DNA of 64,000 nt from an uncultured Methanosarcinales archaeon (GTDB taxonomy: Archaea > Nanobdellota > Nanobdellia > Woesearchaeales > ARS49). The position numbers were made by a program, and so were the translations under genes. The stretch lies in assembly GCA_964637115.1 (NCBI GenBank), contig CAZWVL010000004.1, positions 75,258 through 139,257 of the forward strand, written 5' to 3'. Shown piece after piece: positions 4,201 to 45,063 of the stretch. The stretch's first letter is position 1; every line of letters starts with the position of its first letter. The notes beneath the pieces are model-generated. The model was given only the letters and a program-made list of their open reading frames with translations. It was not told the DNA's origin and did no database searches.

Positions 4201-6277
4201 ATGTTTCTTGTTGCAGCGCAATGCCTTCTCCTGGTCGCGAAATATCTACATATGTTATTTGCGTTGGCTCGTCAAAGAGCATTGTGAATGTTGGCCGTTT
4301 TGCTGACGTGTAGATTGTCTTGCCGATTACTCTGCCTCCGGTGATATTGATTCCTAGCAGTCTTGGGCCGTTGCAGTTGTCGCAGCTGTAAATGTCAATG
4401 TGCTTGATTATTTCGAGATTGTTTGCCGCGTCTCTGCCGTAAAACCACAATGTGTTGTTTCCTGCAGAGAACTTGGCGACTGTTTTGTTGCCGTCTTTTA
4501 GTACCGTGTTCTTCAAGCTCAATCTTGTTGAGTTTGTCACAATGCTGTACGATTGCGCATTTAGGCAGGAATTGGTCGAATTTTGTACGCAAAGATATGC
4601 TTTGTATCCTGGCATGCCAGTATAGTCTTGCAGCGGGCTTGTTTTGTTTATCTTGTCAAACAATCTAATGTTGATGTAGTCTACTCTGTTTGCCTGGCCT
4701 GTTGGAATTAATGTTGACAGTGGAGGGAAGTAATCCATTTCGCAAGTTTTGTTTCCTGGCTTGCAGTCTTGGAATCCTGCTCCTGTGCTTCCGTCTGCGT
4801 TTTTGACACAGCCTACTGCCAGTCTGTATTCGCAAACTCCTATGCTGCAGATATCTGTGCTTTTTTGCGCTATGCTGTTATCTGGGTTTAGTCTGATTCC
4901 GTCAACTGGTGAGTTACATTGCAATGAAGTATAATCTGAACAGGATGCCTCATCACAGGTCTTGCTTACTTTTCTGTCCTTGTCAAAAAAGCACGGGTAG
5001 AGTGAGTTGCTTAGCGCGTTGCTTTTTTCTTCACGGCAGGCATCCCATATTAAGCTTGCTACGTCTGCATTTTCTATGCCTGTCGTGCCGTTTACGCTGC
5101 AGAGTTTGCAGTTGTTGTATCTTCTGTCGATGCACACTCCCACTCCTAAATCTTCGTATACATTGTTCCATTGGCATTCTCCTGCTCCGCAGTTGTCTTT
5201 CGCGCAGGCAGCTTTGCTTTTGTAGTCATAGCAAGTCATTTTAGGATCGCAGTTGTAGCACTTGTCTTTTACTGTGATGCTTTTATCATAGAAACAGTAA
5301 CGCGGGATATTTCCGAATAAATCGCAGGTTTGCGGAGTGGCATAAAGGCCGAATGGGTCAAATCCGTTGCTGCAGATTTCGCGGGTTGCACAGCGTGGTC
5401 CTTTTTCGTCTGAAATGCAAAACTCGTTCTTTCTGAAATCGCATTGCACTTTCGGACTTGGTTCTATCAGACGATTTTGGTCGTTGCAAAGCCAGGCCTT
5501 GTTTAGGCTTGTTGCGAATGTTACGTTAACATTTATTCCAAATGAAGAGGTGAATGCGAGTGCCTCTGTTCCTCCATAGCCGAATTTGGTCAGATAACTT
5601 CTGAATTGGTCATAGTAGAAGTAATTGACGCAGAAAGTGTTTTCTTGTTGGTGCCAGCATTCAATGTCTCCTGCATTGCCTGTTGCAGAGGCTGGATCGC
5701 TGTCTCCTGCAATGGTGTAGTGGGCTACAACAGAATACGTGTAATCCATATTAAATTCGAGGTCCACATCTTCATCTGTGAAAACTGTTGCTGAGGGCGT
5801 TATCGCAATGCTTTTGAAATTCTCACATCCTGTTCCCGCACAACGCGATATGTTCAGATAGTCTGCCGTGCATGGCAGGATGAACGTTAGTCTCAACGCT
5901 TTTTTTCCCTTGATTGATATTATGTTCAAATTTTCCGGTGCTGGTTTGTATGCGGGACTGCCGCATCCGGTGATGATTGGCGCGCAGTCTCCTGGACAGG
6001 CTGTTGCTGTTTCTCCTGGTTGGCAGACGCCGTCTCCGCAGAGTACCGCTCCGGGTGGAGCGAGTGTTGCGTTGCAGTGTTTGCTACACGTGATTGCAAT
6101 GCTCGGAGGCGGGCCGATAAATGTGAAACCCCGTTCTGCGCATTCTGCTGGTGTTGAGAAGCTGCCGTTCTTGACAACTGGGTCGCAGCAGCAGCCGACT
6201 TCTTGTGCGCTTGAGAAGAGCGGTATGGCTAGCAGAATTGCTGCAATAATTGTTGTTATGATTATCGCTCTTCGCAT
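1178..6277 (-). CDS. Giant (1699 aa) Cys-rich type I membrane surface protein, putative adhesin
   Basis: Sec-type signal MRRAIIITTIIAAILLAIPLFSSAQE and very many Cys. Three tandem DCGG-x-C modules. Asp-rich Ca-binding-type repeats (DTDGDGWKDGVEVEKGTDPLDP, DEDLDGITDDVDKC). One TM (FLGFLKVLFILLAITGIGYGGYIVLL) is followed by a 153-aa K/E-rich tail. Confidence 0.85.
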   Translation of the reverse strand: MRRAIIITTIIAAILLAIPLFSSAQEVGCCCDPVVKNGSFSTPAECAERGFTFIGPPPSIAITCSKHCNATLAPPGAVLCGDGVCQPGETATACPGDCAPIITGCGSPAYKPAPENLNIISIKGKKALRLTFILPCTADYLNISRCAGTGCENFKSIAITPSATVFTDEDVDLEFNMDYTYSVVAHYTIAGDSDPASATGNAGDIECWHQQENTFCVNYFYYDQFRSYLTKFGYGGTEALAFTSSFGINVNVTFATSLNKAWLCNDQNRLIEPSPKVQCDFRKNEFCISDEKGPRCATREICSNGFDPFGLYATPQTCDLFGNIPRYCFYDKSITVKDKCYNCDPKMTCYDYKSKAACAKDNCGAGECQWNNVYEDLGVGVCIDRRYNNCKLCSVNGTTGIENADVASLIWDACREEKSNALSNSLYPCFFDKDRKVSKTCDEASCSDYTSLQCNSPVDGIRLNPDNSIAQKSTDICSIGVCEYRLAVGCVKNADGSTGAGFQDCKPGNKTCEMDYFPPLSTLIPTGQANRVDYINIRLFDKINKTSPLQDYTGMPGYKAYLCVQNSTNSCLNAQSYSIVTNSTRLSLKNTVLKDGNKTVAKFSAGNNTLWFYGRDAANNLEIIKHIDIYSCDNCNGPRLLGINITGGRVIGKTIYTSAKRPTFTMLFDEPTQITYVDISRPGEGIALQQETSGMAAMHNFVPISDLLGVYNFSVNGHNAKNIYVDPPGISYILVVDPELAGLTITPPDGSYFNKTSVDVELNFTKQVTLDSVQLLSDAFDDPYVPKQTSRDITTLFKTTNNQTFTAKIDNVVGGKVTIAVDAQGFNGLDIYKQSSFYIATKKPSIRLLAPAFGVTPFSIFNVTIETPLPSTCAYVYDTPTAPNPSDFEIFIAFEGTGTIHTATEVAIPFNAQREYPIHVYCKFAEFGIVQRTFNLTQDTEPINIVKAYAEPAVIAEQYIPAKEIYATTLKVQLDKPGFCKYSLISSNFPQMENKFPGYDVLPKQVLGAPVNVTEKKSYSYHITCKGKNQLVSEPISVPFTVDLSLPLNVSSSTPIGFGTLNFTIGVVANKRVFCYFGERPDDTTRCMGACTSGYTQWQFITVSNPGDYTYYVKCMHVSGEQSDVITIPVLIDTTPPTMEYVKDDGVFEDDPEITWSKSKIRVAFKGKDEDVNISHYLVTLQGLPEKQIVIKDLVSNVTNGEYHYISRTQNGSPLPLQNNKRYSFSVKAVSQVGLISEPMESDGVKVDISREPEPCQDGEKSIGEVGVDCGGECDGCPEGAACISNEDCATNYCQDNICKVAACDDGVMNGLESDVDCGGQVCNKCENDKGCIRHDDCDSGYCDLLKSVCTDAPPCANKVNDPGETDIDCGGPCDRCKEGKNCEENIDCETPLWCKLDLKICSSEPAGDEDLDGITDDVDKCLNTPADEQIDERGCGPSQTFTLGDEINDRWRMDNFGCIDCPEAAEDADPDKDKLTNLQEFKLGTNPVKKDTDGDGWKDGVEVEKGTDPLDPASHPPSGFLGFLKVLFILLAITGIGYGGYIVLLQQKEKRKPVVPTAKAEEKPVKKIIEDEIEKLRTFAKEEELPDKNWIPLEKEIKKKPLPPKKFHEALEQLRKMAHKEKATTEAPLMKLRTMLEELGEDEQKDLLVKYKLLKAGLLSKEEMEELFHKLKITAEYYKTHKEELEKELEHYGKRHKR

Positions 6278-7734
6278 ATTGTTACCTGTAATGGGATTTC
6301 TTGCGAGTCATACCATTCATCCGGGTATGTGCTTCTGTCTTTTGCGTAGACTGTTATGCTGTAGGCAAAATTGGGTGCATCTTTGGAAATTTCATTTCCT
6401 CCGCTTGGCGGGAGGTGCACTGCATACGTGACCTTGTCTTCGTCCGGGTCTGATGCGTTCAATTGTATGAGATATGGATTCTGCACGTCTGCTTCTTGGC
6501 ACGGGTCATTGAATGACAGCACGTTATCCTGCACAGTAACTACCGTGCTTCTGCTTTCAGAAACGTGGAACGTTACATCTTTCAGTGGTGTTGTGTCTAT
6601 CTGCCATAATGCCGGTATTCTGTTTTTTCTGGGTATCCAGAATTCAAATGGCTTGTTTGCTACAACGCTTTGCGCGTCCTTTACTGAAACAAAGCTGTCT
6701 TCCCCGTATGGCAGGATGCCGACTGAGAATGCTCCGATGTTTTGCGGAGTGTAGGAAATGTCCGTGACATCAGAATCAATCATTTGCTTGACTGTATAGT
6801 AAATGGTTGCCAGTCTGACTGGTGCTTTGATTGCGAAGTCTGCAAGTAAGGTTTTATCTCCTCCTGGTGTTGTTACTTCAACTGGCCAGTCGAGTTCTAT
6901 TGTGATATATTGTTCTCCGGCGAATTGTTCTTGTCTTTGTGCAAAAATTAGCGTGGCTGTTGACTTTCCTCCAGTTATTGAGTATCCTTTTTCTTCAAAT
7001 GTTTTCCAGTCTACGCAGTTTGCTGTTTTTTTGGCAATAAATGTTTCAAGGTTTTCCTGTATCGAATTGCTTACGTATTCTCCTGTTTGTGCACTTACTT
7101 TGTACAACGATGGCATCGTGTTCTTGCCATAGTATCCTTTGAATAATGGAGTTGTTTCTCCTGGAGGATAGGGGAATCCAGGATACGGATATTCTGGCGG
7201 CTCTGAGAAAAATAGCGTGCTGACATTTCCTTCTGGCGGCAGGATTAGATATTGTACTTTTAGCTGTTCTGCCCTGTCAGGATCTGTGTACATTACAAAG
7301 CTTCCTGGTGCAGGTTCTGGTGTTATTCCTCCTTGGTTTTGATAAATTACTCCTCCTTGTCTGCCGATTAGCGAGAGTGCTTCAGTTGTTGCTAATGACA
7401 AACACGTTGTAATGTAGTCTTGTATTGGCTGTATGCCGAATTTTTCTGTGGTTTGCTGTGTTTGCTTTACTTCAATGCGCTGCTTCATTTTTGTGCCGAC
7501 ATATAGCGCGATTGAAAATGCGACGAGCACCAAGATTCCGATGATGATGAAGATTGTTATTTGTCCTCGTTTACGTGAAATCCTGGCCGCGCTGGTCTTA
7601 CGAACTGATTTTTCTCCCCCGTACTTGCAAGGGGGAGAAAAATCACCTCGACGCGGTCGAGGCACCGCGGCAAATATGTACAACAGTGATCTTATCACGG
7701 ACTCACCCTGAGCATTCCTACCACTTCTTCCCAC
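6262..7734 (-). CDS. Pilin-like surface protein with class III signal peptide-type motif (true start uncertain)
   Basis: 490-aa ORF. The motif SRKRG|QITIFIIIGILVLVAFSIALYVG begins at residue 53. The region before it contains two perfect hairpins. It overlaps both neighbours (16 nt and 40 nt). Confidence 0.7.
   Translation of the reverse strand: MGRSGRNAQGESVIRSLLYIFAAVPRPRRGDFSPPCKYGGEKSVRKTSAARISRKRGQITIFIIIGILVLVAFSIALYVGTKMKQRIEVKQTQQTTEKFGIQPIQDYITTCLSLATTEALSLIGRQGGVIYQNQGGITPEPAPGSFVMYTDPDRAEQLKVQYLILPPEGNVSTLFFSEPPEYPYPGFPYPPGETTPLFKGYYGKNTMPSLYKVSAQTGEYVSNSIQENLETFIAKKTANCVDWKTFEEKGYSITGGKSTATLIFAQRQEQFAGEQYITIELDWPVEVTTPGGDKTLLADFAIKAPVRLATIYYTVKQMIDSDVTDISYTPQNIGAFSVGILPYGEDSFVSVKDAQSVVANKPFEFWIPRKNRIPALWQIDTTPLKDVTFHVSESRSTVVTVQDNVLSFNDPCQEADVQNPYLIQLNASDPDEDKVTYAVHLPPSGGNEISKDAPNFAYSITVYAKDRSTYPDEWYDSQEIPLQVTICEER
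7607..7662 (-). other. Two adjacent perfect hairpins (14-bp and 7-bp stems) at an intercistronic junction
   Basis: GATTTTTCTCCCCC (7607-7620) pairs with GGGGGAGAAAAATC (7631-7644). CCTCGAC (7646-7652) pairs with GTCGAGG (7656-7662). Confidence 0.7.
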
Positions 7735-8819
7735 GCGTCTACAATGCTTTGTCTGATGTCAAACTTGTTGACTGGCGGATTCCTGTGCGCTGCAACGTAG
7801 AATTCTGACGCTGTTGGTTGTATTTCGCAGTTGGCTCTGCTGTCGTATCCTTTGATTATGTGGTCACAAGTGCCGTTTGGAAGGTTAATGTTTGAAAAGT
7901 ACCATCCTGCGTAATCAATTTGTGTTAGTGTAACGTTTTTTTGTCTAAAGCTGTAGACAAAGTCAAAGTCTTCTTTTGCAATGTAGATTTGCTTGAACGC
8001 TGGTGTTTGGTTGAAGAATGTGTAGTTGTATTGTGCTATGTCTGGATTGTACACGTGATCAAACACGTAATTTTTCAGTTTGTTGTATGGAGTCATGAAG
8101 AATTGTTCTGTTATTGGATTGACTGGTGGCAGGATTGCCGTGTGAGCGTAAATGATGCTTTTTGTGTCGTAGTTGTACCATACTCCGAACTCGCATAGGT
8201 CGTAGTCCTTGTCATTGTTGATCGCGTTGTCGCAGCTGTCTTCGCTCAAGTTCAGTGCGAGCAATGGGCTCTTTGAACCATCAATTTCTGTGTTTATGGC
8301 AGTTCCGAATGCTACATTGTTTCCGTGTCTTAAAACGCACACAGAGTTGACGCAGTTTCTTAATGCTCGGCCGCCTGTCGGCATGCAGAACTTTCCGAGG
8401 AAACTTATTACGGCGCCATAGTCTGTTCGGTATGAATACCGGTTGAATACTTTATCGTAATCGTCACAGTAGATGGAGAAGTTTGTCGGGCTCTGGTTGA
8501 GTGCAAGACTGATTAATTGTGTTGAAACAAGTTTTGTTCGTGAGCTCCACTGGCCCATGTCGCAGTAATTGTCTTCGATAAATTGCGTGTTGTTGATGCA
8601 TTTTGGCTTGTCTTCGTTGCTTTGTTCGCTCCAGTATCTGTCTGGGAAATTGTCCCATGCAGGATTAAATGCGTTGCTTACAAGGCATTGGCTTGTTTCT
8701 GTGCAGAATCCTATTGTTTTTCTGTCCCAATCTTGTCTTATGCTGACTTCAACCCAGTCTGCTGCTTGCACGAATGGTACTAGAATTAAGAACAGTAAAA
8801 CCAGATTTTTTACTGACAT
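7695..8819 (-). CDS. Secreted Cys-containing protein of unknown function
   Basis: 374-aa ORF with Sec-type signal MSVKNLVLLFLILVPFVQA|ADW. Many Cys and N-x-S/T sites. It overlaps the upstream gene by 10 nt. Confidence 0.7.
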   Translation of the reverse strand: MSVKNLVLLFLILVPFVQAADWVEVSIRQDWDRKTIGFCTETSQCLVSNAFNPAWDNFPDRYWSEQSNEDKPKCINNTQFIEDNYCDMGQWSSRTKLVSTQLISLALNQSPTNFSIYCDDYDKVFNRYSYRTDYGAVISFLGKFCMPTGGRALRNCVNSVCVLRHGNNVAFGTAINTEIDGSKSPLLALNLSEDSCDNAINNDKDYDLCEFGVWYNYDTKSIIYAHTAILPPVNPITEQFFMTPYNKLKNYVFDHVYNPDIAQYNYTFFNQTPAFKQIYIAKEDFDFVYSFRQKNVTLTQIDYAGWYFSNINLPNGTCDHIIKGYDSRANCEIQPTASEFYVAAHRNPPVNKFDIRQSIVDAWEEVVGMLRVSP

Positions 8820-10513
8820 AGGAATCCTCTCTGGCCAATAATGTAGTATTCGCCGATGTTTCTACAGTTTTTGCCGTCCCAGCATTGGTCTTCTGGGCAG
8901 CAGCCTTTTTGTTGTTCGTTTTCAAGAGGCGTCCATTTTGTTTGTTTTATGACAGTTGTTTCTATGTTGTTTGTAAAGTACCATTGACCTGATGGAATGC
9001 AGATTGAGTTGGGCTTGGTTCCAGTTAATAACGTGTTAAGGAGTGGAATTCCGCACGCCGGTTGTACTGTGATAGTTATGTCTGTGTCTTGCAGTATGGC
9101 CGTCATTGGTGTGTTAATGTCAGGATTGCATTTGTAATACTCGCCCCTGTGCGACAAAATCGTTTTTTGAGAATCTAGGAAAGTTCCGCTTGGAAGGAAT
9201 TCGTTGTTGTAGCATACTCCTGCTGTTCCAGTGCCCGCATACGGGTCTTCGTACGTGCGCAACGGATCGTCTGGTTCGCCGCAGCATTGTGTGCCTGTCC
9301 ATTTGAGTGCTGCATTTTCACAAGTGGCTCTGTCTTCAATTGACACGCTGAATATTCCGTTTGAATTGCAATAGTTTTTCTTTCCGTCAATGAGTATGTT
9401 CGCGCCCGGCTCTAATGCGGTCGGCGAATAGGGTGTTCCTCCGCCGCATTCAATGATGTTTTCTCCCTGGCAAATGTAATCGTGCTCCCCTATTTTGATA
9501 ATGCCGTTTAGCTGCTGGATTTTGTCTGCTGGGATAATGGTTTGCGGAATGTGTGTACACGTGTAGAATATGCTGCCATTGGATACAACTTTCATTACTG
9601 GGCAGCTTCCACTAAGCGGTGTGATTAATCCAATATCTCCAAGTGCTGCCCATTTCCAGAAGCTTTCTGCATCTTGACCGCAGACTGCTTGCTTGTCGGC
9701 ATACCATTGGCAACCGCTGGCCGGCAGGTAGCCTGCATCTCCGCAGCATTTTCCGTCAAACCAGTCCTTTCCTTCATCAAAGCAATCTTCTTCGTCGAAG
9801 TAGTCGCAGTGGGGATTACCATCAGCATCAGTATTAGAATCTGAGTTCAGACACGTATAAGTGATGTCGTTAAACCCTGATGTTTCTGTTCTGCTGGTTG
9901 AGCTCGAACCTGTTTGATCATCAAACCATATCGGTGCTTTTGTGGTTGAGCTGTACGCCTTTACTGTGCCATTAAAATTTGAAACATCGATTATTTCTCT
10001 TACTCGTTTCAGGTTTATGGCGTTTGTTCCTCTGAGAGAGAAAAGGTCTCGTACTATGGTTGCTGCTGCTCCTCCAACTTGCACAACTTTTGATATGGTT
10101 ATTTGTAAAGTCCCTGTATTGCGTGATCCTTCATATGAAAATACTACTGTGCTCACTGTCTTTCCATAAGTGAAGTTCACTGTTTGCGTTGGTATGTTTG
10201 CCAGATCTTTGCATATTTTTGAATCGTCTTGATTTTGTGCACATAACTTGACGGCCCCGCACTGATATGTCCTTCTAAAAATATTAAAACATATGGGCAG
10301 ATTTGCTACTGTTTGCAGTTGTTGAACAAATGGAGAATCCGGCAGGGTGAGCGTTGCGGTTGAAGGATAACTTGCTCCAATGATTGCAGTTGTTCCAAGG
10401 TTTGCAGTGAAATCCAGTTGCTTGCTTTCGTTGATTGAGATTGTGAAGATGGCATCTTCTGCAAGAACTGCTATGCTTAGTAATAGGAAAATGAATAGGT
10501 AAACAGACCGCAT
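8810..10513 (-). CDS. Secreted Cys-rich protein of unknown function (first gene of the surface operon)
   Basis: 567-aa ORF with signal MRSVYLFIFLLLSIAVLA|EDA. Recurrent CCG-type motifs (KCCGDAGY, TQCCGEPDD, KGCCPEDQCWDGKNC). An A/T-rich TATA-like stretch lies at ~10524-10535 just upstream. Confidence 0.75.
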   Translation of the reverse strand: MRSVYLFIFLLLSIAVLAEDAIFTISINESKQLDFTANLGTTAIIGASYPSTATLTLPDSPFVQQLQTVANLPICFNIFRRTYQCGAVKLCAQNQDDSKICKDLANIPTQTVNFTYGKTVSTVVFSYEGSRNTGTLQITISKVVQVGGAAATIVRDLFSLRGTNAINLKRVREIIDVSNFNGTVKAYSSTTKAPIWFDDQTGSSSTSRTETSGFNDITYTCLNSDSNTDADGNPHCDYFDEEDCFDEGKDWFDGKCCGDAGYLPASGCQWYADKQAVCGQDAESFWKWAALGDIGLITPLSGSCPVMKVVSNGSIFYTCTHIPQTIIPADKIQQLNGIIKIGEHDYICQGENIIECGGGTPYSPTALEPGANILIDGKKNYCNSNGIFSVSIEDRATCENAALKWTGTQCCGEPDDPLRTYEDPYAGTGTAGVCYNNEFLPSGTFLDSQKTILSHRGEYYKCNPDINTPMTAILQDTDITITVQPACGIPLLNTLLTGTKPNSICIPSGQWYFTNNIETTVIKQTKWTPLENEQQKGCCPEDQCWDGKNCRNIGEYYIIGQRGFLCQ

Positions 10514-19217: not shown

Positions 19218-19289
19218 AGAGAAGAAGGACGTGTAAAAACATTTAAATAGTATTCGATATGGCTATAGAATATCAAAAAAGGTGAATCC

Positions 19290-20447
19290 ATGAACAAGCG
19301 CGGTGATAGGGCACAGGGTGGCGGACCAGCTGCTGCGCTTATTGGAATTATCACCCTGTTGTTCATTTTCTACATATTGTTCCTTCCTCCTGAAGAACGC
19401 AGAGAGCTTTTGGAGGGCGATAACGCTACTTTTGACGAAGAAGGCGGGCTGCTTTTGGATGAAGCTCCTGGCACGCTGACTTTTACGGAAAAGGGCGTGT
19501 TTGACCATAGTATTTCCAATGTTTACCTTGTTGAAACAAAAAATGCCGTTGTCTTGGGTTCTGAAAATCCGTTTATTGTGAAAAAGGGCTGGTTTGGAGA
19601 GCAGACTAAGTCTATGGTTTTCGGCGTTTCTGATATGGAAAATACTGAAAACTTGATGTTGAGTTTCCAGGCGCCTGAAAGAAAGGGCAATCTTGTGATT
19701 GCATTGAATGGCCAGAAGATTTTTGAGAGTGAGGTTAAAGTGCAGAATCCTCCTCCTGTTTTGCTGCCAAAGCCTTTGTTGAAGCCAACAAACCAGCTGG
19801 ACTTTTCCGTTGCTGGAGGTTTCTTTTCGAAGAGGAAGTATTCGTTGTCTGATGTGAAAGTTGTTGGCGATATTACTGATGTTAAGAAGCAGGTTGCCCA
19901 AAATACTTTCACTATTTCTGATACTGAAAAGGAAAATCTTGATACTTCATTCCTTGACTTTTATCCGATTTGTGACCAGCGCACTGTTGGTGTTTTGACG
20001 CTCGAGTTGAATGGCAAAATTATCTTTTCCGCAGCTCCCGCATGTGACAGTTTAAACAGGCAGGACTTGTATGCTGAAGACTTGCGTTCTGGAAAGAACA
20101 CCGTTATTTTCAGGATTGACAGGGGAAGTTATCGTGTTGAGCAGATTCGCGTGAGAACTATTTTAGAACCTGTCAAGGCATACATTGATTTCTTCAATAT
20201 CAAAAGCAGTGTATACAATGACATCTTGGACAGGGAGCGTCAAGTTATTCTAAGGATGGAATTTGTTGATGATGAAAAACAGAAAAGGGCTGAATTAAAT
20301 TTGAACGGCAGAAAGGATGCTATTGACCAGCGTGATAATGTTTATGAGCGCGATGTTAGTTCTTGGATTAAAGAGGGTAGCAACTATATCGAGATTAAAC
20401 CGCTGACTGAGCTTGACGTTGTCAGGCTGGAAGTCCGCGCGGATTAA
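19290..20447 (+). CDS. N-terminally anchored envelope protein with three LNG-type beta-rich repeats (unknown family)
   Basis: 385 aa. Anchor MNKRGDRAQGGGPAAALIGIITLLFIFYILFLPP. Recurring segments LVIALNGQKIF, LTLELNGKIIF and AELNLNGRKDAI. First gene of a five-gene operon. Confidence 0.7.
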   Translation: MNKRGDRAQGGGPAAALIGIITLLFIFYILFLPPEERRELLEGDNATFDEEGGLLLDEAPGTLTFTEKGVFDHSISNVYLVETKNAVVLGSENPFIVKKGWFGEQTKSMVFGVSDMENTENLMLSFQAPERKGNLVIALNGQKIFESEVKVQNPPPVLLPKPLLKPTNQLDFSVAGGFFSKRKYSLSDVKVVGDITDVKKQVAQNTFTISDTEKENLDTSFLDFYPICDQRTVGVLTLELNGKIIFSAAPACDSLNRQDLYAEDLRSGKNTVIFRIDRGSYRVEQIRVRTILEPVKAYIDFFNIKSSVYNDILDRERQVILRMEFVDDEKQKRAELNLNGRKDAIDQRDNVYERDVSSWIKEGSNYIEIKPLTELDVVRLEVRAD

Positions 20448-20449
20448 AG

Positions 20450-22210
20450 ATGCCAAATTGGAAAGCATGGGCCGCTAATCTGGTTGCTCCAGGTTCTGGA
20501 TTTCTTGTAAAGATGGCTGACAAGTTTAAGAAAAAACCTATGATGACTGCTGCAGCGGCTGGTGCTGCCGGCGGCGTTGCTGTGGGTGCAGCTGCTGTTT
20601 ATGCGCGTCCAGAACCGGCTCCTGCGCCTCAACAAGCTCCGGTTTATGCCGCGCCTTCAGGACCGGGCATTACAAGTAAAATTGTTGGTGGCACGTGGCT
20701 CGCATTAAAAGGATTGTTTGGCTCTGTGCTTCCCGAAACTGCTGGCAGGAACATTCTTCGTGCTGTTTTGATTTTAGGTGCTGCTTTGGCGTTTTATGTT
20801 TTGTTGAAAAGATTGGGAATTAGAACTCCGTTTAATGTTTCTTTCATTGTGATTTTCGGCATTGCTGCAGCTGTTTACGAGCTCGCGCCAGAGCCGATTG
20901 GGAAATTATTCAAGTGGGCTTCATTGATTTTCGGAGGATTTGTCGGTTTTTGGGCTTTAGCTATCGGTCCTTTCAGCCCTTCAATTGCAAAATGGGCCAC
21001 ACTCTCGTGGCTCATATTGTATACTGTGCTGTTTTTCTCTATTCTTAGATTCAAGAAAGGAATGATTGTGCTCACGTTCAACGCACTCATTTTTGGCTTG
21101 TTGTTCACGAATTTTTACAATGGCGTGTACGAGGCTGGAACTCCCTTGCATACTGCGTTGCAGGGCCAGCAAAGCGCGTGGAGGGAGTTGTATAGGGATA
21201 TCTCAGGAGCAGGTAAGGAAGCGTATGCTGGATTGGGACGGCAGCTTTATTTTTTCAAACCAGACAGTTATGATCTTGGTGTTGAAGAAAATGCTGCGCG
21301 TCCTTTGGGTGTTTATTTGAAGGATATTGGCGTTACTTCAAAGACAATTTTAATTGATGATAATGTAAATGTGTTTGCCACTTTGAAATCTTTGTCTTTC
21401 AAGACTGATGCTGAACTGAAAATTGATGTTGCTTGTTACGAGGAAGGATTTGAGGATATGCCTGATAAGCGCGGCATTATTACGCCGCTCGCTTCTGTCC
21501 CCTTGAGGGAGGATGAAGAGCAGCCTGTTGATTGCAACATTGATGCTGCCAATCTTGGTATTGGAAGTCATAACATTGCTATTGAGGCAACATTTGGTTT
21601 CCCAACAAGCGCTTATCTGAAAAGCTACTTTATGCTGCAAGATCAGATACGCGCTTACAAAAAACAGCATCCTGAGGAAGAAGCAAATCCATTGGATGCC
21701 TTCGAAATTACTGATAAAAACCCGATTGCGAAGTATACTGGCGGGCCTTTGTACATTGGTATGGGTGCTGGCCAACAGCCGATTCCCCTGCCTTCAGAGA
21801 ATTTTGGCCCGACCTTGACTATAACTCTTGACCGCAATTCTGGCTGGGATGGAGATCTTATAAGTGTGAAAAAGATTACGATTGCTGTTCCTCCTGGTTT
21901 GAAAGTTTCTAAGATTAGCGGCAGGAGTGTGGAGAAGTATTGCCAGATTGTTTCAGAAGAGGATACTTGTGTTCTTGACAAGCCTGAAATTCTTGACAGG
22001 TTATTTCCCCCCGCTGAGAAACCTGTCCACTTGGAGAAGAAGATTCGCGTTGAGACTTTGATTACTGATAAAGCAAAGCTTATGGCAAATGCTCCGCTCG
22101 CGATCAGAAGCTTTAAAGTAACAGCTGATTATGTGTTCCGTATTAAGAAGACATCAGAAAGTATAACTGTGCAGGCGCCAAAAGTGCCTAAGACTGGAGG
22201 CATTGCGTGA
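20450..22210 (+). CDS. Polytopic membrane protein with C-terminal ectodomain related to the downstream lipobox proteins
   Basis: 586 aa. Ala/Gly/Pro-rich N-terminus, about 5 hydrophobic segments (residues ~95-250), then a ~300-aa soluble part. That part has motifs paralleling the paralogs (VACYEEG, GMGAGQQPIPL, TADYVFR). It starts 2 nt after the upstream stop. Confidence 0.75.
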   Translation: MPNWKAWAANLVAPGSGFLVKMADKFKKKPMMTAAAAGAAGGVAVGAAAVYARPEPAPAPQQAPVYAAPSGPGITSKIVGGTWLALKGLFGSVLPETAGRNILRAVLILGAALAFYVLLKRLGIRTPFNVSFIVIFGIAAAVYELAPEPIGKLFKWASLIFGGFVGFWALAIGPFSPSIAKWATLSWLILYTVLFFSILRFKKGMIVLTFNALIFGLLFTNFYNGVYEAGTPLHTALQGQQSAWRELYRDISGAGKEAYAGLGRQLYFFKPDSYDLGVEENAARPLGVYLKDIGVTSKTILIDDNVNVFATLKSLSFKTDAELKIDVACYEEGFEDMPDKRGIITPLASVPLREDEEQPVDCNIDAANLGIGSHNIAIEATFGFPTSAYLKSYFMLQDQIRAYKKQHPEEEANPLDAFEITDKNPIAKYTGGPLYIGMGAGQQPIPLPSENFGPTLTITLDRNSGWDGDLISVKKITIAVPPGLKVSKISGRSVEKYCQIVSEEDTCVLDKPEILDRLFPPAEKPVHLEKKIRVETLITDKAKLMANAPLAIRSFKVTADYVFRIKKTSESITVQAPKVPKTGGIA

Positions 22211-23127
22211 AAAAATTAATTTTACTGCTATTATTACTTGCTGCCTGTCAGTTCCAAGTTCCCACAAAAACAAAGTTTCCTCAGGAAATCCCCGTTTTTA
22301 CAGGAACTACCGCTCTTGAAGCTGCTTTTAATCCTGCTTCGATGAGCAACATTATCATGTGTCAGCAGGCTGATGTTTATGTTGATGTTAAGAATACTGG
22401 CGCATCCAATATTGTTGATGGCACGTTAACTTTCATTACTGAAGATCAGTATTTGATGCCTTTGTCTGAGCGTGTTAGAAAGTTTTCTTTACTTGGAAAA
22501 TCTCAGTTTAATCCTAAAGGTGGTTTTGACCAGGTGAATTTTAAGGTTAAGAATATTGGCATCTTGCCGCAGTTTGAAAGCTATCAGTCCGATCTTATCT
22601 TCCGTGCTTGTTACAAGTACGATACTATTGCTGCTGCGCAGGTTTGTATTGATCCTGATGTCGCTAATTTGAATCCTCGTAAGACTTGTCGTGCAACACC
22701 TGTTGTCTTGCCTGGGGGCCAGGGCGCTCCTGTTGCAGTTACGCGTGTTGAGCCTTTGATGGTTCCTGAGGGCGACCAAATTCATCCTGTGTTCGTGGTT
22801 TATGTTCAACAGCTTGGAAGAGGCGATGTGGTTAAGCCAGAGGGCTCGGAGCTTGCTTGCACTGGTGGTGGCGGGCCTCTTTTGGCAAGTTATGCTTCTG
22901 TACGCGCCTCAATTCAGAACAGGGAATTGAAGTGTGAGCCCAACCCTGTGAGAATTGAGCCTGGCCAGGAATCCAGGTTTATTTGCGAGCGCCAGGACAT
23001 GTTGTTTGGCCCTACTTCAGGCACGTTTAGCACCATTTTGTCAGTTCAGCTTGATTACGGTTACGTAACGAGTGCGTTATTGCCGATGACCATTACAAGG
23101 CTTCCGGGACAGGCGCCATGCAAATAG
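22207..23127 (+). CDS. Lipobox envelope protein, paralog A (unknown family)
   Basis: GTG start in a GTGA overlap with the upstream stop. N-terminus MKKLILLLLLLAAC. Motifs ACYKYDTIAAAQVCIDPD, GGQGAPVAVTRVE, QLGRGDVV and LDYGY are shared with paralogs B and C. Confidence 0.75.
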   Translation: MKKLILLLLLLAACQFQVPTKTKFPQEIPVFTGTTALEAAFNPASMSNIIMCQQADVYVDVKNTGASNIVDGTLTFITEDQYLMPLSERVRKFSLLGKSQFNPKGGFDQVNFKVKNIGILPQFESYQSDLIFRACYKYDTIAAAQVCIDPDVANLNPRKTCRATPVVLPGGQGAPVAVTRVEPLMVPEGDQIHPVFVVYVQQLGRGDVVKPEGSELACTGGGGPLLASYASVRASIQNRELKCEPNPVRIEPGQESRFICERQDMLFGPTSGTFSTILSVQLDYGYVTSALLPMTITRLPGQAPCK

Positions 23128-23160
23128 TTACCAAAAAGTATTTATAAGGTAGTGATTGGA

Positions 23161-24102
23161 ATGACATATATGAAAAAGAGTCTGATGATTATATTTTTGC
23201 TAGTGTTCTTGATTGCCTGTGCGAGGATTGGAAAGAAGGGTGAGCAGCCGCAGCCTCAGGAGTTTCGTTCTGGTACGCAGGGAATTTACATGCAGTTTGT
23301 TCCAAACCTGCCTCCACCTAAAGTGTTTGACCGGGAGCCGTTGAACGTTATGATTCAGATTGAGAACAGGGGTACTGCTATGGTTGGCTCTGTTGGCCTT
23401 GACAAGGTTTACCTTTCTGGTTTTGATAACAATATCATCACTGGTATTCCGATGGATGGTGTTGACATTCCTCAAATGGAGGGTCGTGGTCCTTATATGC
23501 CGCAGGGCGGAATTGATACTGTCAGCTTCAGGGGAATTATCCAACCTTTGGGTGCAAAGAGGATTGACAAGTATCAGCCTACTTTGCTGGCTACTGCCTG
23601 TTATCATTATGAGACAATCGCTAGTGCTCAAGTGTGCATTGATCCTAATCCTTATGCGCCGACAAACATTGTAAAGGTGTGCACGCCTTCCACTGTCGGT
23701 CTTGGCAGCCAGGGCGCGCCGATTGCAGTTACTAGTGTTGAAGTTGTCCCATCGCCTGAGAAAACAAGATTCAAGATTAGCATTTCAAATGTTGGTGGCG
23801 GTGATGTGTTTAGGTCGCGTTACTTAAACGCGTGCAGTCCGTATAGCGGCGGTCTTGGCTTTAATGAAGTTGATTTTGTGAGAGTTGATAACGTCGTTAT
23901 TTCTGGACAAACCATAAAGGATACTTGTAAGCCGTTTAGTGACCGTGAGTTTATTCGTTTGACAAATGGCCAGGCCCAGTTATTCTGCGAGTTTAATGCT
24001 CCTCCTGGTCAGAGTGCGTTCTTGACTCCTTTGGAAATTTGGCTTGATTATGGCTATCGTTCGAGCATTTTCAGGCAGCTCGACATTAGACCTGTTTCGT
24101 AA
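23161..24102 (+). CDS. Lipobox envelope protein, paralog B (unknown family)
   Basis: N-terminus (MTY)MKKSLMIIFLLVFLIAC. Motifs ACYHYETIASAQVCIDPN, GSQGAPIAVTSVE, NVGGGDVF and LDYGY. The track starts at GTG 23152; ATG 23161 or 23170 is more likely. Confidence 0.75.
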   Translation: MTYMKKSLMIIFLLVFLIACARIGKKGEQPQPQEFRSGTQGIYMQFVPNLPPPKVFDREPLNVMIQIENRGTAMVGSVGLDKVYLSGFDNNIITGIPMDGVDIPQMEGRGPYMPQGGIDTVSFRGIIQPLGAKRIDKYQPTLLATACYHYETIASAQVCIDPNPYAPTNIVKVCTPSTVGLGSQGAPIAVTSVEVVPSPEKTRFKISISNVGGGDVFRSRYLNACSPYSGGLGFNEVDFVRVDNVVISGQTIKDTCKPFSDREFIRLTNGQAQLFCEFNAPPGQSAFLTPLEIWLDYGYRSSIFRQLDIRPVS

Positions 24103-24137
24103 CATTTAAATAAGTACATTCTTGATTAAGTTCAAAA

Positions 24138-25082
24138 ATGAGGCGATTGATTGTTATATTGATGTTGGCACTTCTTGTAATTGCTTGTAAGCAGGGCGCT
24201 AAGAAGCAAGTTGACCTTGAAGCTCCATTCTTGGGCGGCTCGCAAGGACTGGCCATAGATTTCCAGGATTTGCGAAAAGACGTTTTTGACGGGGGACAGG
24301 ACCCGTTTGACGTGATTGTCAAGCTTGAAAACAAAGGAGAGGCTTTAGTCAAGAAGGAGAACGTTCAGGTGAAGATTTCAGGCATTAATCCTGTCGAATT
24401 CGGCAAGAGCGAACTTGACTTGGTTAAGAACGCGCCTGATGATGCTATTGAAATGAGAAAAGATCCTCAAGGCGGCACGCTTCCAGGACAACAAGTTTTT
24501 GTAGAATTTGTCGGCTTAAACCATAACGGCCTTATTGCAGGAGCGTCTGCACAATTCCCCTTAAGAGCTGATGTTTGCTATTTGTACCGCACAAGAACAG
24601 TTAGCGAGCTGTGCGTGAGGGAAAATTTGCTGACTCCGAGAGTGGGCGGCATTTGTGAACTCAATGAGGATAAAAAGTTCTTCAACAGTGGTGCGCCTGT
24701 TCAAGTGGTGAACTTCAGGGAATCAACACGCGCCAAAGACAAGATCGGTTTCAGTTTTGAAATTAAGAACATCGGAACAGGCAACGTTTTCCAGAGAAAC
24801 TCGATGTGTGATAGGACTGAGCGCAAGAATGAAAACAGAGTGTTTGTTATCGTTGAAACAGGCCTGAGCGGCTTGCAGTGCACGGGTTTGGAGACTGCTG
24901 GAAGGGGAGCTGAAGGTTTTGTTACATTATATGGCGGCTCTAAGATTGTTTCTTGCTCACAGTCCATCTCATCACGTTCTGATTATGAACAATTGGTAAA
25001 CATCGAAACTATTTATGATTACGAGCAATCAATCCAGTCAACAATTGCGGTGAAGAGTTCTGGTGAAGGAACTTCTGGCTAA
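24138..25082 (+). CDS. Lipobox envelope protein, paralog C (divergent)
   Basis: N-terminus MRRLIVILMLALLVIAC. Motifs DVCYLYRTRTVSELCVREN, NSGAPVQVVNFRE, NIGTGNVF and IYDYE. TATA-like CATTTAAATAAG lies ~25 nt upstream. Confidence 0.75.
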   Translation: MRRLIVILMLALLVIACKQGAKKQVDLEAPFLGGSQGLAIDFQDLRKDVFDGGQDPFDVIVKLENKGEALVKKENVQVKISGINPVEFGKSELDLVKNAPDDAIEMRKDPQGGTLPGQQVFVEFVGLNHNGLIAGASAQFPLRADVCYLYRTRTVSELCVRENLLTPRVGGICELNEDKKFFNSGAPVQVVNFRESTRAKDKIGFSFEIKNIGTGNVFQRNSMCDRTERKNENRVFVIVETGLSGLQCTGLETAGRGAEGFVTLYGGSKIVSCSQSISSRSDYEQLVNIETIYDYEQSIQSTIAVKSSGEGTSG

Positions 25083-25514
25083 ATGCACCGCGATGTTGCA
25101 CTGATTATTTTCTATAAAGATAATAAGATTTTGATACAGGATCGCCGTGATATGAGTAAATTTGGTGAAGAATATGGCTACTTTGGTGGCAGTATTGACG
25201 CTGGTGAAACTCCGGAAGAGGCAGTTATTCGTGAGACAAGGGAGGAATTGTCTTTTGAGTTGAAGGAATTTGATTTTTTCAGAAAGTTTCATCACAAAGT
25301 TCAGGATTTCACTTTAACATTATATGTTTTTGTAGCACCATGCCCATCACTGTCTGCATTCAAACAAAAAGAGGGTCAAGGCATGATTCTAGTTACGGAA
25401 AAGGAAGGTCAGCAGTTGAAAATGCCTTCGCATGCTGAGAAAAATGGCGGAGATTATGAGATAATGCGGGAAGTTTTTACTTGGTTACGCGCCAGCAAGA
25501 ACAAACTGCGCTAA
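25083..25514 (+). CDS. Nudix hydrolase
   Basis: Nudix box GGSIDAGETPEEAVIRETREELSFE. The start is fused to the upstream stop (TAAATG). Confidence 0.85.
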   Translation: MHRDVALIIFYKDNKILIQDRRDMSKFGEEYGYFGGSIDAGETPEEAVIRETREELSFELKEFDFFRKFHHKVQDFTLTLYVFVAPCPSLSAFKQKEGQGMILVTEKEGQQLKMPSHAEKNGGDYEIMREVFTWLRASKNKLR

Positions 25515-38509: not shown

Positions 38510-38611
38510 TATTCATGTTGTTACTCATCCGTAGGTATAACCCATATATAAATGTTTCCGTTTTTCACCCTTCATTAGTAATAAAAACACGGCTTTTAAA
38601 GGAATGATAGT

Positions 38612-38637
38612 CACCCTCCCCTATTTCCTATGCAAAT
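38612..38637 (-). repeat. ORB-like box (inverted, shorter spacer)
   Basis: The reverse complement reads ATTTGCATAGGAAATAGGGGAGGGTG: a TGCA-TAG-GAAA core plus a G-run, with 2 nt between GAAA and GGGG instead of 4. Confidence 0.45.
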
Positions 38638-38777
38638 CGCCTTATTGTTATTCTGATGATTCTTCTTTATTATTATATTATATCTATATAGAAAATAATT
38701 ATAATAACAATCACTCTCTTCACAACTCACTCTTAAAAACAAACAAAACAATAAAACACCCTTTTCCCTTCACTACC

Positions 38778-38798
38778 GTTCCATACGAAACCAAGGGG
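38778..38798 (+). repeat. ORB-like box with G-string
   Basis: GTTCCATACGAAACCAAGGGG follows the pattern TCCA-N3-GAAA-YC-N2-GGGG. The box at 51163-51184 shares this pattern. Confidence 0.6.
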
Positions 38799-38837
38799 TG
38801 TCTCCTCTCCAAAAGTTTATATATAACTATCGCTGCT

Positions 38838-38858
38838 GGTTCCATACGCAAAAAAGCC
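38838..38858 (+). repeat. Mini-ORB-like box (core only)
   Basis: GGTTCCATACGCAAAAAAGCC repeats the GTTCCATACG core of 38778-38787 but has no G-string. Confidence 0.45.
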
Positions 38859-38892
38859 AAAAAGGAGGTTTTTTTGTAAAGTTGGTGATTTC

Positions 38893-45023: not shown

Positions 45024-45042
45024 GGACCGCGGGGTTCCAGAA

Positions 45043-45063
45043 GGGGCCGGCGGTTGAGGCCCC
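45043..45063 (+). other. GC-rich hairpin just downstream of the DP2 stop
   Basis: GGGGCC (45043-45048) pairs with GGCCCC (45058-45063). The loop is 9 nt. Confidence 0.5.

Follow-up and report, generated by a model that had tools for sequence, protein, structure and literature searches.

We checked the open reading frames of the 64-kb window (the whole stretch of DNA analysed here) and found five plus-strand genes, g1 to g5, at 19290-25082, with the sizes given by an earlier sequence-only reading (Table 1). The tight same-strand linkage described in that reading held, with 2 nt between g1 and g2, a GTGA overlap (-4 nt) between g2 and g3, and 35 nt between g4 and g5. The g3-g4 gap was 24-42 nt, varying with the choice of g4 start (23152 gives 316 aa and 23161 gives 313 aa), and a NUDIX gene starts at 25083, abutting the g5 stop. 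The 4-nt g2/g3 overlap was kept in 36 of 59 loci, and therefore translational coupling of g3 with g2 is suggested. As for the operon that had been proposed, g1-g2-g3 were tightly coupled, but g4 and g5 lay behind 30-55-nt spacers, usually with TATA-like boxes. Of 51 orthologous loci, 57% had such an element at -45 to -15 relative to g1; for g4 the share was 73% of 81 loci, compared with 4% for g2 and g3, and for g5 it was 56% of 77 loci. The box upstream of g1 is a candidate promoter for the g1-g2-g3 unit, that before g4 does no more than suggest an internal promoter, as AT-rich spacers weaken TATA counts, and that before g5 is a possible internal promoter.

Table 1. Features of the five-gene cluster and its upstream region in the window.
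Feature	Position	Strand	Basis
TATA-like box TTTAAATA, 5' of g1	19242..19249	+	sequence, consensus match only
GGTGA Shine-Dalgarno-like element, 5' of g1	19281-19285	+	sequence
g1, 385-aa N-anchored protein	19290-20447	+	ORF
g1 residues 1-35: basic motif, one hydrophobic helix, conserved PPxER	19290-19394	+	alignment
g1 beta-rich repeat R1	19461-19835	+	alignment
g1 beta-rich repeat R2	19836-20165	+	alignment
g1 beta-rich repeat R3	20166-20444	+	alignment
g2, 586-aa polytopic membrane protein	20450-22210	+	ORF, AF2 model, alignments
g2 disordered, variable N-terminal region, residues 1-95	20450-20734	+	model/alignment
g2 hydrophobic helical region, residues 96-267	20735-21250	+	AF2 model
g2 beta-sandwich D1, residues 284-400	21299-21649	+	AF2 model/alignment
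g2 beta-sandwich D2, residues 420-579	21707-22186	+	AF2 model/alignment
g3, 306-aa lipoprotein paralogue, GTG start overlapping g2 stop	22207-23127	+	ORF
g3 signal peptide MKKLILLLLLLAAC, lipobox Cys codon	22246-22248	+	sequence
TATA-like box TTTATAA, g3-g4 spacer, 23 nt before g4 ATG	23141..23147	+	sequence
g4, 310-aa lipoprotein paralogue from ATG of MKKSL	23170-24102	+	ORF
g4 signal peptide MKKSLMIIFLLVFLIAC, lipobox Cys codon	23218-23220	+	sequence
TATA-like box TTTAAATA, g4-g5 spacer, 25 nt before g5 ATG	24105..24112	+	sequence
g5, 314-aa lipoprotein paralogue	24138-25082	+	ORF
g5 signal peptide MRRLIVILMLALLVIAC, lipobox Cys codon	24186-24188	+	sequence

The last three genes encode paralogues, as had been claimed from ordered motifs, all of which we found in the translations. 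BLASTP related g3 to g4 over the full length (8.7e-26), g4 to g5 (2.6e-15), and g3 to g5 (0.02), and family profiles compared by hhalign gave 9e-71, 4e-39, and 5e-31 for the same pairs. The lipobox Cys was conserved throughout the g3, g4, and g5 families (Cys17 of the g4 alignment at least 90% conserved), the strict motif [LVI][ASTVI][GAS]C occurring in 62/73, 48/84, and 53/78 members and a relaxed form in 69/73, 61/84, and 71/78, respectively. The AF2 model of g4 (pLDDT 92, pTM 0.83) has two tandem CARDB-like beta-sandwich domains, with six conserved Cys in the alignment. Foldseek returned only generic tandem Ig-like matches and a DUF11 protein for it, at a TM of about 0.2, and CARDB matches, all sub-threshold, were obtained for 16 of 67 lipoprotein family members; the CARDB/Ig-like beta-sandwich reading of the lipoproteins was borne out by these results.

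The model of g2 (pLDDT 75-83 in the helices, 80-94 in the ectodomain) agreed with a polytopic protein as previously read, the count of about five TM segments becoming 4-6 helices in the hydrophobic region. D1 and D2 were detected in nearly all g2 orthologues, the ectodomain having two conserved Cys pairs and the TM region being divergent between lineages. The ectomodule said to be common to g2 and the lipoproteins stood as a two-sandwich layout with a colinear profile, but not as statistically established homology. Against the lipoprotein family profiles, g2 gave a colinear alignment (E 0.001-0.014, probability 3-22%) with the signal confined to domain 2 (0.0022, versus 0.1 for domain 1). Against 236 lipoproteins, the g2 ectodomain HMM gave 141 matches at E<10 (best 2e-4) and the control g1 HMM gave 18 (best 0.63); the Foldseek match lists of the g2 ectodomain and g4, both two-sandwich layouts, overlapped. 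Of the motif counterparts proposed in g2, GMGAGQQPIPL and TADYVFR aligned, whereas VACYEEG was not positionally equivalent to the lipoprotein 'ACYxYET'. Because the E values were only of this size, we consider the weak but colinear homology plausible, not proven.

The alignment showed a single N-terminal hydrophobic helix in g1, as expected from its description as N-anchored, preceded by [KR][KR][GA]Q in 25 of 38 orthologues. The 'LNG' Asn is conserved in every g1 repeat, as is one Cys pair in R2; of the three LNG-type repeats that had been described, R1 and R2 were related (hhalign 6.5e-10), but R3 was not significantly so (0.03-0.05). In 9 of 38 members, CBM families of the galactose-binding-domain-like type recurred as weak, sub-threshold matches; together with an NCBIfam jelly-roll match (E 0.069), these hint weakly at carbohydrate-binding jelly rolls in g1. 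The g1 family was confined to Woesearchaeota, every member being annotated 'hypothetical'.

None of the five proteins had an above-threshold match in Pfam, NCBIfam, PDB sequences, PHROGs, or PADLOC, and fold searches gave no characterised family either, as the sequence-only reading had anticipated. All relatives were 'hypothetical protein' from Woesearchaeota and were spread over 266 species-level genomes (for g4, 2920 cluster representatives at E<=1e-3); the named ones were Candidatus Woesearchaeota or Nanoarchaeota, in line with the source being a small-genome DPANN archaeon. The order g1-g2-g3-g4-g5 was present in almost every fetched locus with enough flank and persisted down to about 30% identity, with the housekeeping genes PheRS, TrmB, Pelota, and RFC flanking the cluster. 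Absent paralogy, a known-family match, and an unconserved gene order had been named as signs against the earlier interpretation; with gene order this strongly conserved, therefore, none of them was found. Across 20 loci, the median identity was 57% for g5, the most conserved of the five, 52% for g4, 47% for g1, and 63% for Pelota, and such strong constraint on g4, g5, and g1 would fit obligate protein-protein contacts. The five genes thus appear to form an uncharacterised, lineage-wide Woesearchaeal surface cluster with no described family match.

In g2 orthologues from a deep-branching subset of the loci we found a peptidoglycan hydrolase domain C-terminal to D2: at least 16 carried SLT, glucosaminidase, or Amidase_2 at this place, and one M15 peptidase ORF occupied the g2 position. 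The catalytic motifs ES, GLMQ, and AYNxG were intact in the SLT domains, and among the fetched loci SLT-like domains occurred only in g2-position ORFs. For SLT-domain proteins found only in Woese- and Pacearchaeota, attachment to the walls of bacteria has been proposed (PMC8204110), and Woesearchaeal SLT proteins have been read as attacking or attaching to such walls (PMC8204110, PMC10936187). These fusions lend independent support to the 'host-contact device' that was among the options of the sequence-only reading. In the window itself, g2 lacks a hydrolase domain and SLT-like sequence is absent from the entire 64 kb, so that the muralytic link comes by way of remote orthologues (g4+g5 identity 30-42%); of the fetched lineages, about three quarters, that of the window among them, have a g2 without hydrolase.

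Given the lineage-wide conservation, the lack of a described family, and the wall-cutting enzymes in some relatives, we therefore propose the cluster as a candidate host-contact machine. In our favoured explanation, which we think quite possible though short of probable, the five proteins would, throughout Woesearchaeota, form a heteromeric complex at the cell surface, anchored by lipids and helices to the outside of the cytoplasmic membrane, that engages wall glycans of a partner cell. Extracytoplasmic tethering is supported by the lipoboxes, the g1 helix, and the g2 helices followed by an all-beta ectodomain, and conserved Cys pairs are present in every ectodomain. The integral-membrane core, g2, would display its two beta-sandwich domains outside; g3, g4, and g5 would be exported by Sec and lipid-anchored through the lipobox Cys, presumably via the AliA-type pathway of archaea (both AliA and lipoproteins being widespread in DPANN, PMC12462473), each adding a similar two-domain CARDB-like module; and g1 would be held by its one N-terminal helix and bear jelly-roll repeats resembling carbohydrate-binding modules. 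In a large subset of Woesearchaeota, a lytic transglycosylase, glucosaminidase, or amidase at the distal end of g2 would cleave the peptidoglycan of bacteria where the two cells meet, and in the lineage of the window the complex may serve as an adhesion/scaffold module only or be partnered with an enzyme encoded elsewhere.

The high conservation of g4 and g5 and the fixed position among housekeeping genes are atypical for host-specific adhesins and accord no less well with a housekeeping function in the envelope. The main rival is a constitutive outer protein layer of Woesearchaeal cells, an S-layer-like lattice, or a pseudo-periplasmic support, built from g1 and the four two-domain modules, with the g2 hydrolases of some lineages as secondary add-ons, for feeding or defence, on an exposed display platform; we judge it possible, if on the doubtful side. 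Surface layers of archaea are typically built from Ig-like and CARDB-like domains, and tandem beta-sandwich folds were predicted here. The cluster is universal, single-copy, and fixed in position, its g4, g5, and g1 conservation approaches that of Pelota, and separate g4 and g5 promoters, if present, would permit higher subunit copy numbers. However, subunits of ~30 kDa with two domains and an N-terminal lipid anchor are not a known S-layer format, sequence searches showed no similarity to any known S-layer family, and several hydrolase types on g2, as well as the CBM-like g1, would be left unexplained.

In bacteria, hydrolases are controlled by a membrane protein with a cytoplasmic tail and an ectodomain, together with partner lipoproteins and the peptidoglycan hydrolases, as in FtsEX-EnvC-amidase and with the lipoprotein regulators NlpD and LpoA/B. 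The parts list of the cluster matches such complexes, the hydrolase fusions are located on g2, and the genomic context is that of housekeeping genes, so that the complex could position or regulate hydrolases for growth and division in Woesearchaeota with a murein-like wall. We think this improbable: archaea are normally without murein, the published reading of Woesearchaeal SLT proteins has bacterial walls as the target (PMC8204110, PMC10936187), and most fetched lineages have no hydrolase on g2. Moreover, sequence searches related none of the cluster proteins to FtsX, EnvC, NlpD, or Lpo proteins.

Lipoproteins adjoining a polytopic membrane protein, as in this cluster, are also the usual layout of binding-protein-dependent transporters. 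DPANN archaea rely on imported metabolites (PMC11420986, PMC8204110), and the lipoproteins might capture host-derived glycans, muropeptides, or lipids for import by the g2 membrane domain. Little likelihood attaches to this, as the lipoproteins are all-beta tandem sandwiches whereas substrate-binding proteins have an alpha/beta fold, neither an ATPase nor a known permease family is encoded in the cluster, and the g2 TM region diverges fast between lineages, the ectodomains being the conserved part. We gave hardly any credence to a type-IV-filament-related role, in which g1 would have a class III (prepilin-like) signal peptide and lie on or prime a pilus-like fibre with g2-g5 as accessory parts, since the basic motif of g1 and the KRGQ-plus-hydrophobic N-termini of window proteins at 658-1200 and 6262-7734 (minus strand) are outweighed by the 6-10 polar residues between motif and helix in most orthologues and in the window, an atypical prepilin peptidase site, and by the finding that in no locus did an assembly ATPase or a platform protein lie within or next to the cluster.

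We also compared the cluster with known systems. In VirB1 (type IV secretion), FlgJ (flagella), EtgA (type III secretion), phage tail lysins, and FtsEX-EnvC-amidase, a muralytic domain is likewise tethered to a membrane-anchored apparatus for spatially confined cleavage, and SLT, glucosaminidase, and amidase are families common to such envelope machines and g2 orthologues. In contrast, the core subunits showed no sequence or fold relationship to those machines in sequence and Foldseek searches, the producer is an archaeon without known murein, and the enzyme is missing in many lineages. Tandem beta-sandwiches resemble integrin alpha calf-thigh, complement MG, MSCRAMM adhesins, RbmA, and archaeal Ig-domain S-layer proteins; Foldseek probabilities with tandem Ig-like/CARDB/DUF11 proteins were up to 0.99, but TM-scores were ~0.2, identity was 7-13%, and no Pfam threshold was reached, so that this likeness concerns fold class only, without functional assignment. 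The lipoproteins share the charged n-region, hydrophobic core, and [LVI][ASTVI][GAS]C of Haloferax volcanii lipobox lipoproteins (PMC12462473, PMC13631571). AliA (arCOG02177) is present in DPANN, where lipobox lipoproteins are predicted to be prevalent (PMC12462473, PMC13631571), lipidation there being a prediction; characterised haloarchaeal lipoproteins are mostly substrate-binding and redox proteins, whereas a tandem Ig-like paralogue set occurs here. Nanobdellota ectosymbionts (YN1, Nanobdella) have an attachment organelle with protein components stated to be unknown (PMC11420986), a host-contact apparatus of the envelope in related small-genome archaea and an analogy only, and their hosts are archaea without murein. 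The nearest described proteins are the large extracellular SLT proteins of Woesearchaeota and Pacearchaeota (fam00969, module 98, Castelle et al. 2021, PMC8204110), which agree in lineage, extracellular location, SLT domain, and proposed binding or degrading of bacterial walls. The g2 of the window differs in having no SLT domain, and that study does not mention the conserved core of TM region and two sandwiches, nor the five-gene cluster with its g1 and three lipoprotein paralogues; the SLT-bearing g2 orthologues may belong to or overlap fam00969.

All five plus-strand ORFs were found exactly where the sequence-only reading had placed them as an envelope operon, and every motif that it quoted was present in the translations. 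These genes encode an N-anchored protein (g1), a polytopic membrane protein (g2) and three lipoprotein paralogues (g3, g4 and g5). Between g1 and g2 lie 2 nt, g2 and g3 share a GTGA start-stop overlap, and the spacers before g4 and g5 measure 24-42 nt and 35 nt. For g4 we used the ATG that agrees with the orthologue N-termini, and alternative upstream starts lie at 23152 (316 aa) and 23161 (313 aa). The sequence-only reading had left conservation of the gene order to be checked, and the one-strand order g1-g2-g3-g4-g5 was indeed kept wherever the contig sufficed: it was complete in 46 of the 85 orthologous loci fetched (L numbers), while contig ends cut the cluster in the remaining ones. All named relatives of the five proteins belonged to Candidatus Woesearchaeota or Nanoarchaeota metagenome bins, which assigned the window to a Woesearchaeon and agreed with the small-genome DPANN archaeon proposed earlier. 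When each GTDB species was represented by one genome, 266 genomes held a relative of g4, and a g4 profile search returned 2920 representatives at E<=1e-3 among 1.8 billion cluster representatives. Contigs carrying the cluster (L038, L085, L035 and many "uncultured Methanosarcinales" records) are also filed as Binatia bacterium, Aminicenantes bacterium, Aenigmatarchaeota or Methanosarcinales, names foreign to the lineage, probably owing to mis-binning or placeholder taxonomy.

Features of the window, with median identities to the window proteins computed over the 20 loci holding all genes
Feature	Position	Strand	Length (aa)	Median identity (%)	Remark
Second putative surface-protein cluster	658-10513	-
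Prepilin-like N-terminus protein	658-1200	-			N-terminus ...KRRGQIMGQVFIYILAGLVFVL
Cys-rich secreted protein	1178-6277	-	1699		bacterial TSP3 repeat
Prepilin-like N-terminus protein	6262-7734	-			N-terminus ...RKRGQITIFIIIGILVLVAF
Signal-peptide protein	7695-8819	-
Signal-peptide protein	8810-10513	-
Pelota				63	upstream flank
g1	19290-20447	+	385	47
g1 N-terminus (with basic motif)	19290-19394
g2	20450-22210	+	586	30
g2 residues 1-27	20450-20530				cytoplasmic N-terminus
g3	22207-23127	+	306	34	GTG start
TATA-like box before g4	23141-23147
g4	23170-24102	+	310	52	ATG start
TATA-like box before g5	24105-24112
g5	24138-25082	+	314	57
NUDIX hydrolase	25083-25514	+			Pfam NUDIX, E 1e-12
RFC small subunit				73	downstream flank
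Replication gene cluster	38510-51100
18-nt direct repeat	38778-38795, 38839-38856				5' of cdc6
Orc1/Cdc6	38893-40110
PolD small subunit	40098-41531
PolD large subunit	41532-45023
MCM	49091-51100

The cluster is flanked upstream, on the opposite strand, by genes for PheRS alpha, a TrmB-type regulator and Pelota (archaeal housekeeping genes), and downstream by genes for the RFC small subunit, a PRC-barrel protein and TyrRS; these housekeeping neighbours were likewise conserved across loci. Two of the surface proteins almost match a translation factor in constraint, since their median identities are close to that of Pelota. A phage or defence origin was rejected, as PHROGs and PADLOC returned no matches and the genes sit in this conserved housekeeping context. 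A NUDIX hydrolase gene begins 1 base past the g5 stop and may be co-transcribed with g5; it probably lies outside the conserved module, because L001 and L002 have it at this position and L003 and L005 lack it. In L044 (2731-6835), L062 (5836-6885) and L085 (3240-5042), extra genes of 349-853 aa without a Pfam family stand between the g3 and g4 positions and could encode lineage-specific accessory subunits. Elsewhere in the window, a second putative surface-protein cluster yielded a single TSP3 repeat as its only Pfam match (four large proteins scanned), and a replication gene cluster contains an AT-rich intergenic region 5' of cdc6, with a direct repeat and inverted repeats, that may be a replication origin.

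The module may be transcribed as three units (g1-g2-g3, g4 and g5) instead of a single operon, because TATA-like boxes recur before g4 and g5 (73% and 56% of loci, respectively, and 4% before g2 and g3). In the window these boxes lie 23-25 nt 5' of the g4 and g5 start codons, a distance compatible with leaderless or short-leader transcripts, and the spacers before g4 and g5 measured about 42 and 52 nt across related loci. The g1-g2 gap was 1-3 nt, and the 4-nt overlap of g2 and g3 was retained in 36 of 59 loci.

The proposed paralogy of the three lipobox proteins was borne out by pairwise and profile alignments. BLASTP gave 8.7e-26 for g3-g4 (full length), 2.6e-15 for g4-g5 and 0.02 for g3-g5, and profiles built from 73-85 orthologues each gave E values of 9e-71, 4e-39 and 5e-31; by sequence, g3, g4 and g5 are true paralogues. 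Their N-termini have a basic n-region and a hydrophobic core followed by the predicted lipoboxes LAAC (g3, Cys14), LIAC (g4, Cys17) and VIAC (g5, Cys17), and thus conform to the SPII-type pattern ([LVI][ASTVI][GAS]C within about 15-25 residues, after a basic n-region and a hydrophobic h-region). The lipobox was retained across all three families (73, 84 and 78 orthologues), conservation of Cys17 among the aligned g4 sequences was 90% or higher, and the Pfam lipid-attachment-site model LPAM_1 gave sub-threshold matches in 9 of 67 relatives. Besides the lipobox Cys, six more cysteines were invariant or near-invariant in g4, as expected of a putative exported, disulfide-bonded protein. Lipoproteins in the window organism are plausible because lipobox proteins and the lipidation enzyme AliA (arCOG02177) are reportedly prevalent in DPANN, with gaps in the occurrence of AliA (PMC12462473). 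As a conserved case from outside the halophiles, the cluster lends itself to tests of how archaeal lipoproteins are made. Longer lipoprotein relatives (400-770 aa) proved to be lipoproteins enlarged by insertions, or extended at the C-terminus by an fn3 or Cys-rich tail, and did not resemble g2.

In the AlphaFold2 model of g4 (67 input sequences; mean pLDDT 92, pTM 0.83), a short linker joins the signal helix to two all-beta domains, and residues 138-157 and 284-303 form the long strands that close them. An internal duplication linking the two domains of the lipoprotein was rejected, with an hhalign value (0.072) below significance. The g2 model (overall pLDDT 74) divides into three: the N-terminal residues 1-95 are disordered and poorly conserved, residues 96-267 form a helical hydrophobic region (pLDDT 75-83), and the all-beta C-terminal half (287-575, pLDDT 80-94) comprises two domains, here D1 and D2, with long closing strands at 376-396 and 551-568. 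Hydropathy indicated five membrane segments, two of which AlphaFold2 fused into a single long helix, and the positive-inside rule was not cleanly met under either count. Within the predicted disordered cytoplasmic N-terminus of g2, residues 1-27 carry the motif AANLVAPGSG (AATFIPGAQ in other relatives), of which Ala9 and Gly15 were invariant in the 17 sequences of the alignment of g2 relatives (A2), and through this motif g2 may dock a partner in the cytoplasm.

Both g4 and the g2 ectodomain are thus predicted to be modules of two beta-sandwich (Ig-like) domains. Foldseek searches of the two models against PDB returned generic tandem Ig-like matches only (TM about 0.2, identity 7-13%), among them integrin alpha calf/thigh, complement MG, transglutaminase C-terminal barrels, MSCRAMM adhesins and RbmA, and no functional homologue among these solved structures; the best match in the viral library BFVD was a DUF11 protein. 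The CARDB/Ig-like beta-sandwich proposed earlier therefore stood as a fold class (AlphaFold2, Foldseek) but not as a family. Sub-threshold CARDB (PF07705) matches came from 16 of 67 lipoprotein relatives (best E 6.4e-4), no CARDB/DUF11 match exceeded a curated threshold, and the window proteins gave no Pfam match at E<=1.

The sequence-only reading had also held that g2 shares the ectomodule of the lipoproteins. Pairwise BLAST of g2 with g3-g5 detected no significant similarity, and the profile of the g2 C-terminal half matched those of g3, g4 and g5 at E 0.012, 0.014 and 0.001 (probabilities 3-22%). The profile alignment was colinear over 155 columns and paired the long closing strands of domain 1, GMGAGQQPIPL with GLGSQGAPIAVT, TLTITLDRNSGWDGD with RFKISISNVGGGD, and the closing-strand motifs DYVFR and DYGYR; VACYEEG and ACYxYET, matched in that reading, did not occupy equivalent positions. 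An HMM of the g2 ectodomain recovered 141 of 236 lipoproteins at E<10 (best 2e-4), compared with 18 (best 0.63) for a control g1 HMM, and the per-domain signal came from D2 only (0.0022 vs 0.1 for D1). A two-sandwich architecture common to g2 and the lipoproteins is shown, and common ancestry, at homology E values of only 0.001-0.014, is plausible for at least D2. Kinship of g1 to g2 or to the lipoproteins was rejected (hhalign and hmmsearch at background level).

Members of the g1 family are highly uniform in length (380-415 aa). Their N-terminus combines a basic motif [KR][KR][GA]Q (25 of 38 orthologues) with a single hydrophobic helix and the conserved sequence PPxER. Of the three LNG-type repeats described earlier, repeats 1 and 2 proved homologous (hhalign 6.5e-10), but no relation of repeat 3 to either was demonstrable by hhalign. 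Sub-threshold Pfam matches occurred in 9 of 38 members (CBM-like 4, CBM_35 3, GH2 N-terminal 2), the NCBIfam glycoside-hydrolase jelly-roll domain matched g1 at a sub-threshold E of 0.069, and the sole match in a PDB profile search was a GH26 mannanase entry (E 0.27). These weak but recurrent jelly-roll matches are suggestive of carbohydrate binding by g1 through galactose-binding-domain-like jelly rolls.

Orthologues of g2 ranged from about 490 to 1245 aa. D1 and D2 were found in nearly all of them while the TM region diverged, and the added length sits after D2 and is often a peptidoglycan hydrolase. Pfam SLT was detected in eight orthologues (E 1e-4 to 1e-13; PF01464 in L067, L068, L070, L074, L076, L077, L078 and L085, among others) with the catalytic motifs Glu-Ser, GLMQ and AYNxG intact, Amidase_2 in one alongside SLT (1e-27), and glucosaminidase in one strongly (2e-16) and two weakly; at one locus the ORF standing in the g2 position contained an M15 peptidase. 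An HMM trained on the SLT tails added five further members, its matches being confined to g2-position ORFs in the fetched loci. Hydrolase-bearing g2 clustered among the loci farthest from the window (30-42% identity in g4+g5): in the most distant loci almost every g2 had a hydrolase tail, another group had an fn3-like tail, and the window clade had none. The window g2 stops right after D2, and the SLT-tail HMM found no SLT-like sequence in the window. Judged by these sequences, varied wall-cutting enzymes have been attached to the distal end of g2 or exchanged there.

What was observed agrees with a heteromeric complex at the external side of the membrane, in which g2 would be the core and would be joined by the three lipid-anchored two-domain modules of g3-g5 and by helix-anchored g1 with its CBM-like repeats. 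We infer its export, lipidation, assembly, glycan binding and role in host contact. Because wall-cutting enzymes occur at the distal end of g2 and g1 has the look of a glycan binder, we tentatively favour, at somewhat less than even chance, a device engaging the cell-wall glycans of partner cells. In the window lineage, which lacks the enzyme, the complex would be adhesive or structural, or would be served by an enzyme encoded elsewhere; alternatively, the partner may have no murein. A constitutive envelope scaffold or S-layer-like lattice, which we consider rather unlikely, would explain the universality, housekeeping context and strong conservation at least as well, but the hydrolase fusions and CBM-like g1 less well. 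Known S-layer proteins, sought by sequence and structure as the sequence-only reading had advised, had no match in Pfam, NCBIfam or PDB profile searches and were not among the top Foldseek matches. Even as a housekeeping layer of the envelope, the cluster would define how the cell surface is basically built in a major lineage of archaea. A machine controlling hydrolases on the cell's own wall, resembling FtsEX-EnvC-amidase, is improbable, as it needs murein in archaea for which none is known. An uptake system is more improbable still: the lipoproteins are all-beta, no ATPase or permease family is present, and the g2 TM region evolves fast. ABC substrate-binding lipoproteins, named earlier as an example of a well-characterised family, were likewise rejected, given the all-beta fold in place of an alpha/beta two-lobe one and no match to SBP, permease or ATPase families in the cluster or flanks. 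Least probable is a type-IV-filament-related g1, for which the sole basis is the [KR][GA]Q motif (as [KRS][GA]Q in 25 of 38 orthologues). This motif recalls the class III site of prepilin peptidase ([KR][GA], then about 20 hydrophobic residues), but usually stands 6-10 polar residues from the helix (contiguous in few lineages), and no TFF ATPase, platform protein or prepilin peptidase was found in or beside the cluster in annotated loci.

Woesearchaeota are among the most widespread uncultured archaea, and we know of no account of their hosts, envelope or mode of contact. The cluster recurs, its gene order fixed, across hundreds of species-level genomes, all five families are unannotated, and it supplies concrete proteins to seek in metaproteomes and tomograms. 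The partner-glycan device that we favour would make the g2 tail a sequence-readable marker for the host-contact biology of this lineage, and the link of the g2 core to four peptidoglycan hydrolase classes gives a testable entry to the long-standing question whether Woesearchaeota attach to bacteria and feed on them. Further, in what we regard as an unlikely extension, the cluster would be the core of an undescribed host-contact organelle common to all Woesearchaeota, a membrane-anchored ring or stack of four homologous two-domain modules with a glycan-binding subunit. Its core subunit would bear exchangeable "warheads" (SLT, glucosaminidase, amidase, peptidase, fn3 or none) fitted to the partner wall. 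If so, the g2 C-terminal domain would predict from sequence a bacterial or an archaeal partner, and the five families would supply the first candidates for parts of an attachment apparatus in DPANN, the components of which are explicitly described as unknown (PMC11420986).

The earlier statement that no characterised family has this architecture was upheld: scans of the five window proteins with Pfam, NCBIfam, PHROGs and PADLOC gave no significant match, single-sequence and profile searches of PDB with g1, g2 and g4 gave nothing below E 0.02, the public copies checked among cluster members were all annotated "hypothetical protein", and literature searches on Woesearchaeota with lipoproteins, lipobox or surface clusters turned up no account of the cluster. 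The folds are ordinary, the architecture of the system is without a characterised counterpart, and its function is one that we infer. Surveys have recorded large SLT proteins, extracellular and confined to Woese- and Pacearchaeota, and suggested that they attach to bacterial walls (PMC8204110, PMC10936187). The SLT-bearing g2 orthologues may overlap with them (fam00969, module 98 of Castelle et al. 2021; PMC8204110), and neither the conserved g2 core nor the five-gene cluster is described in these surveys.
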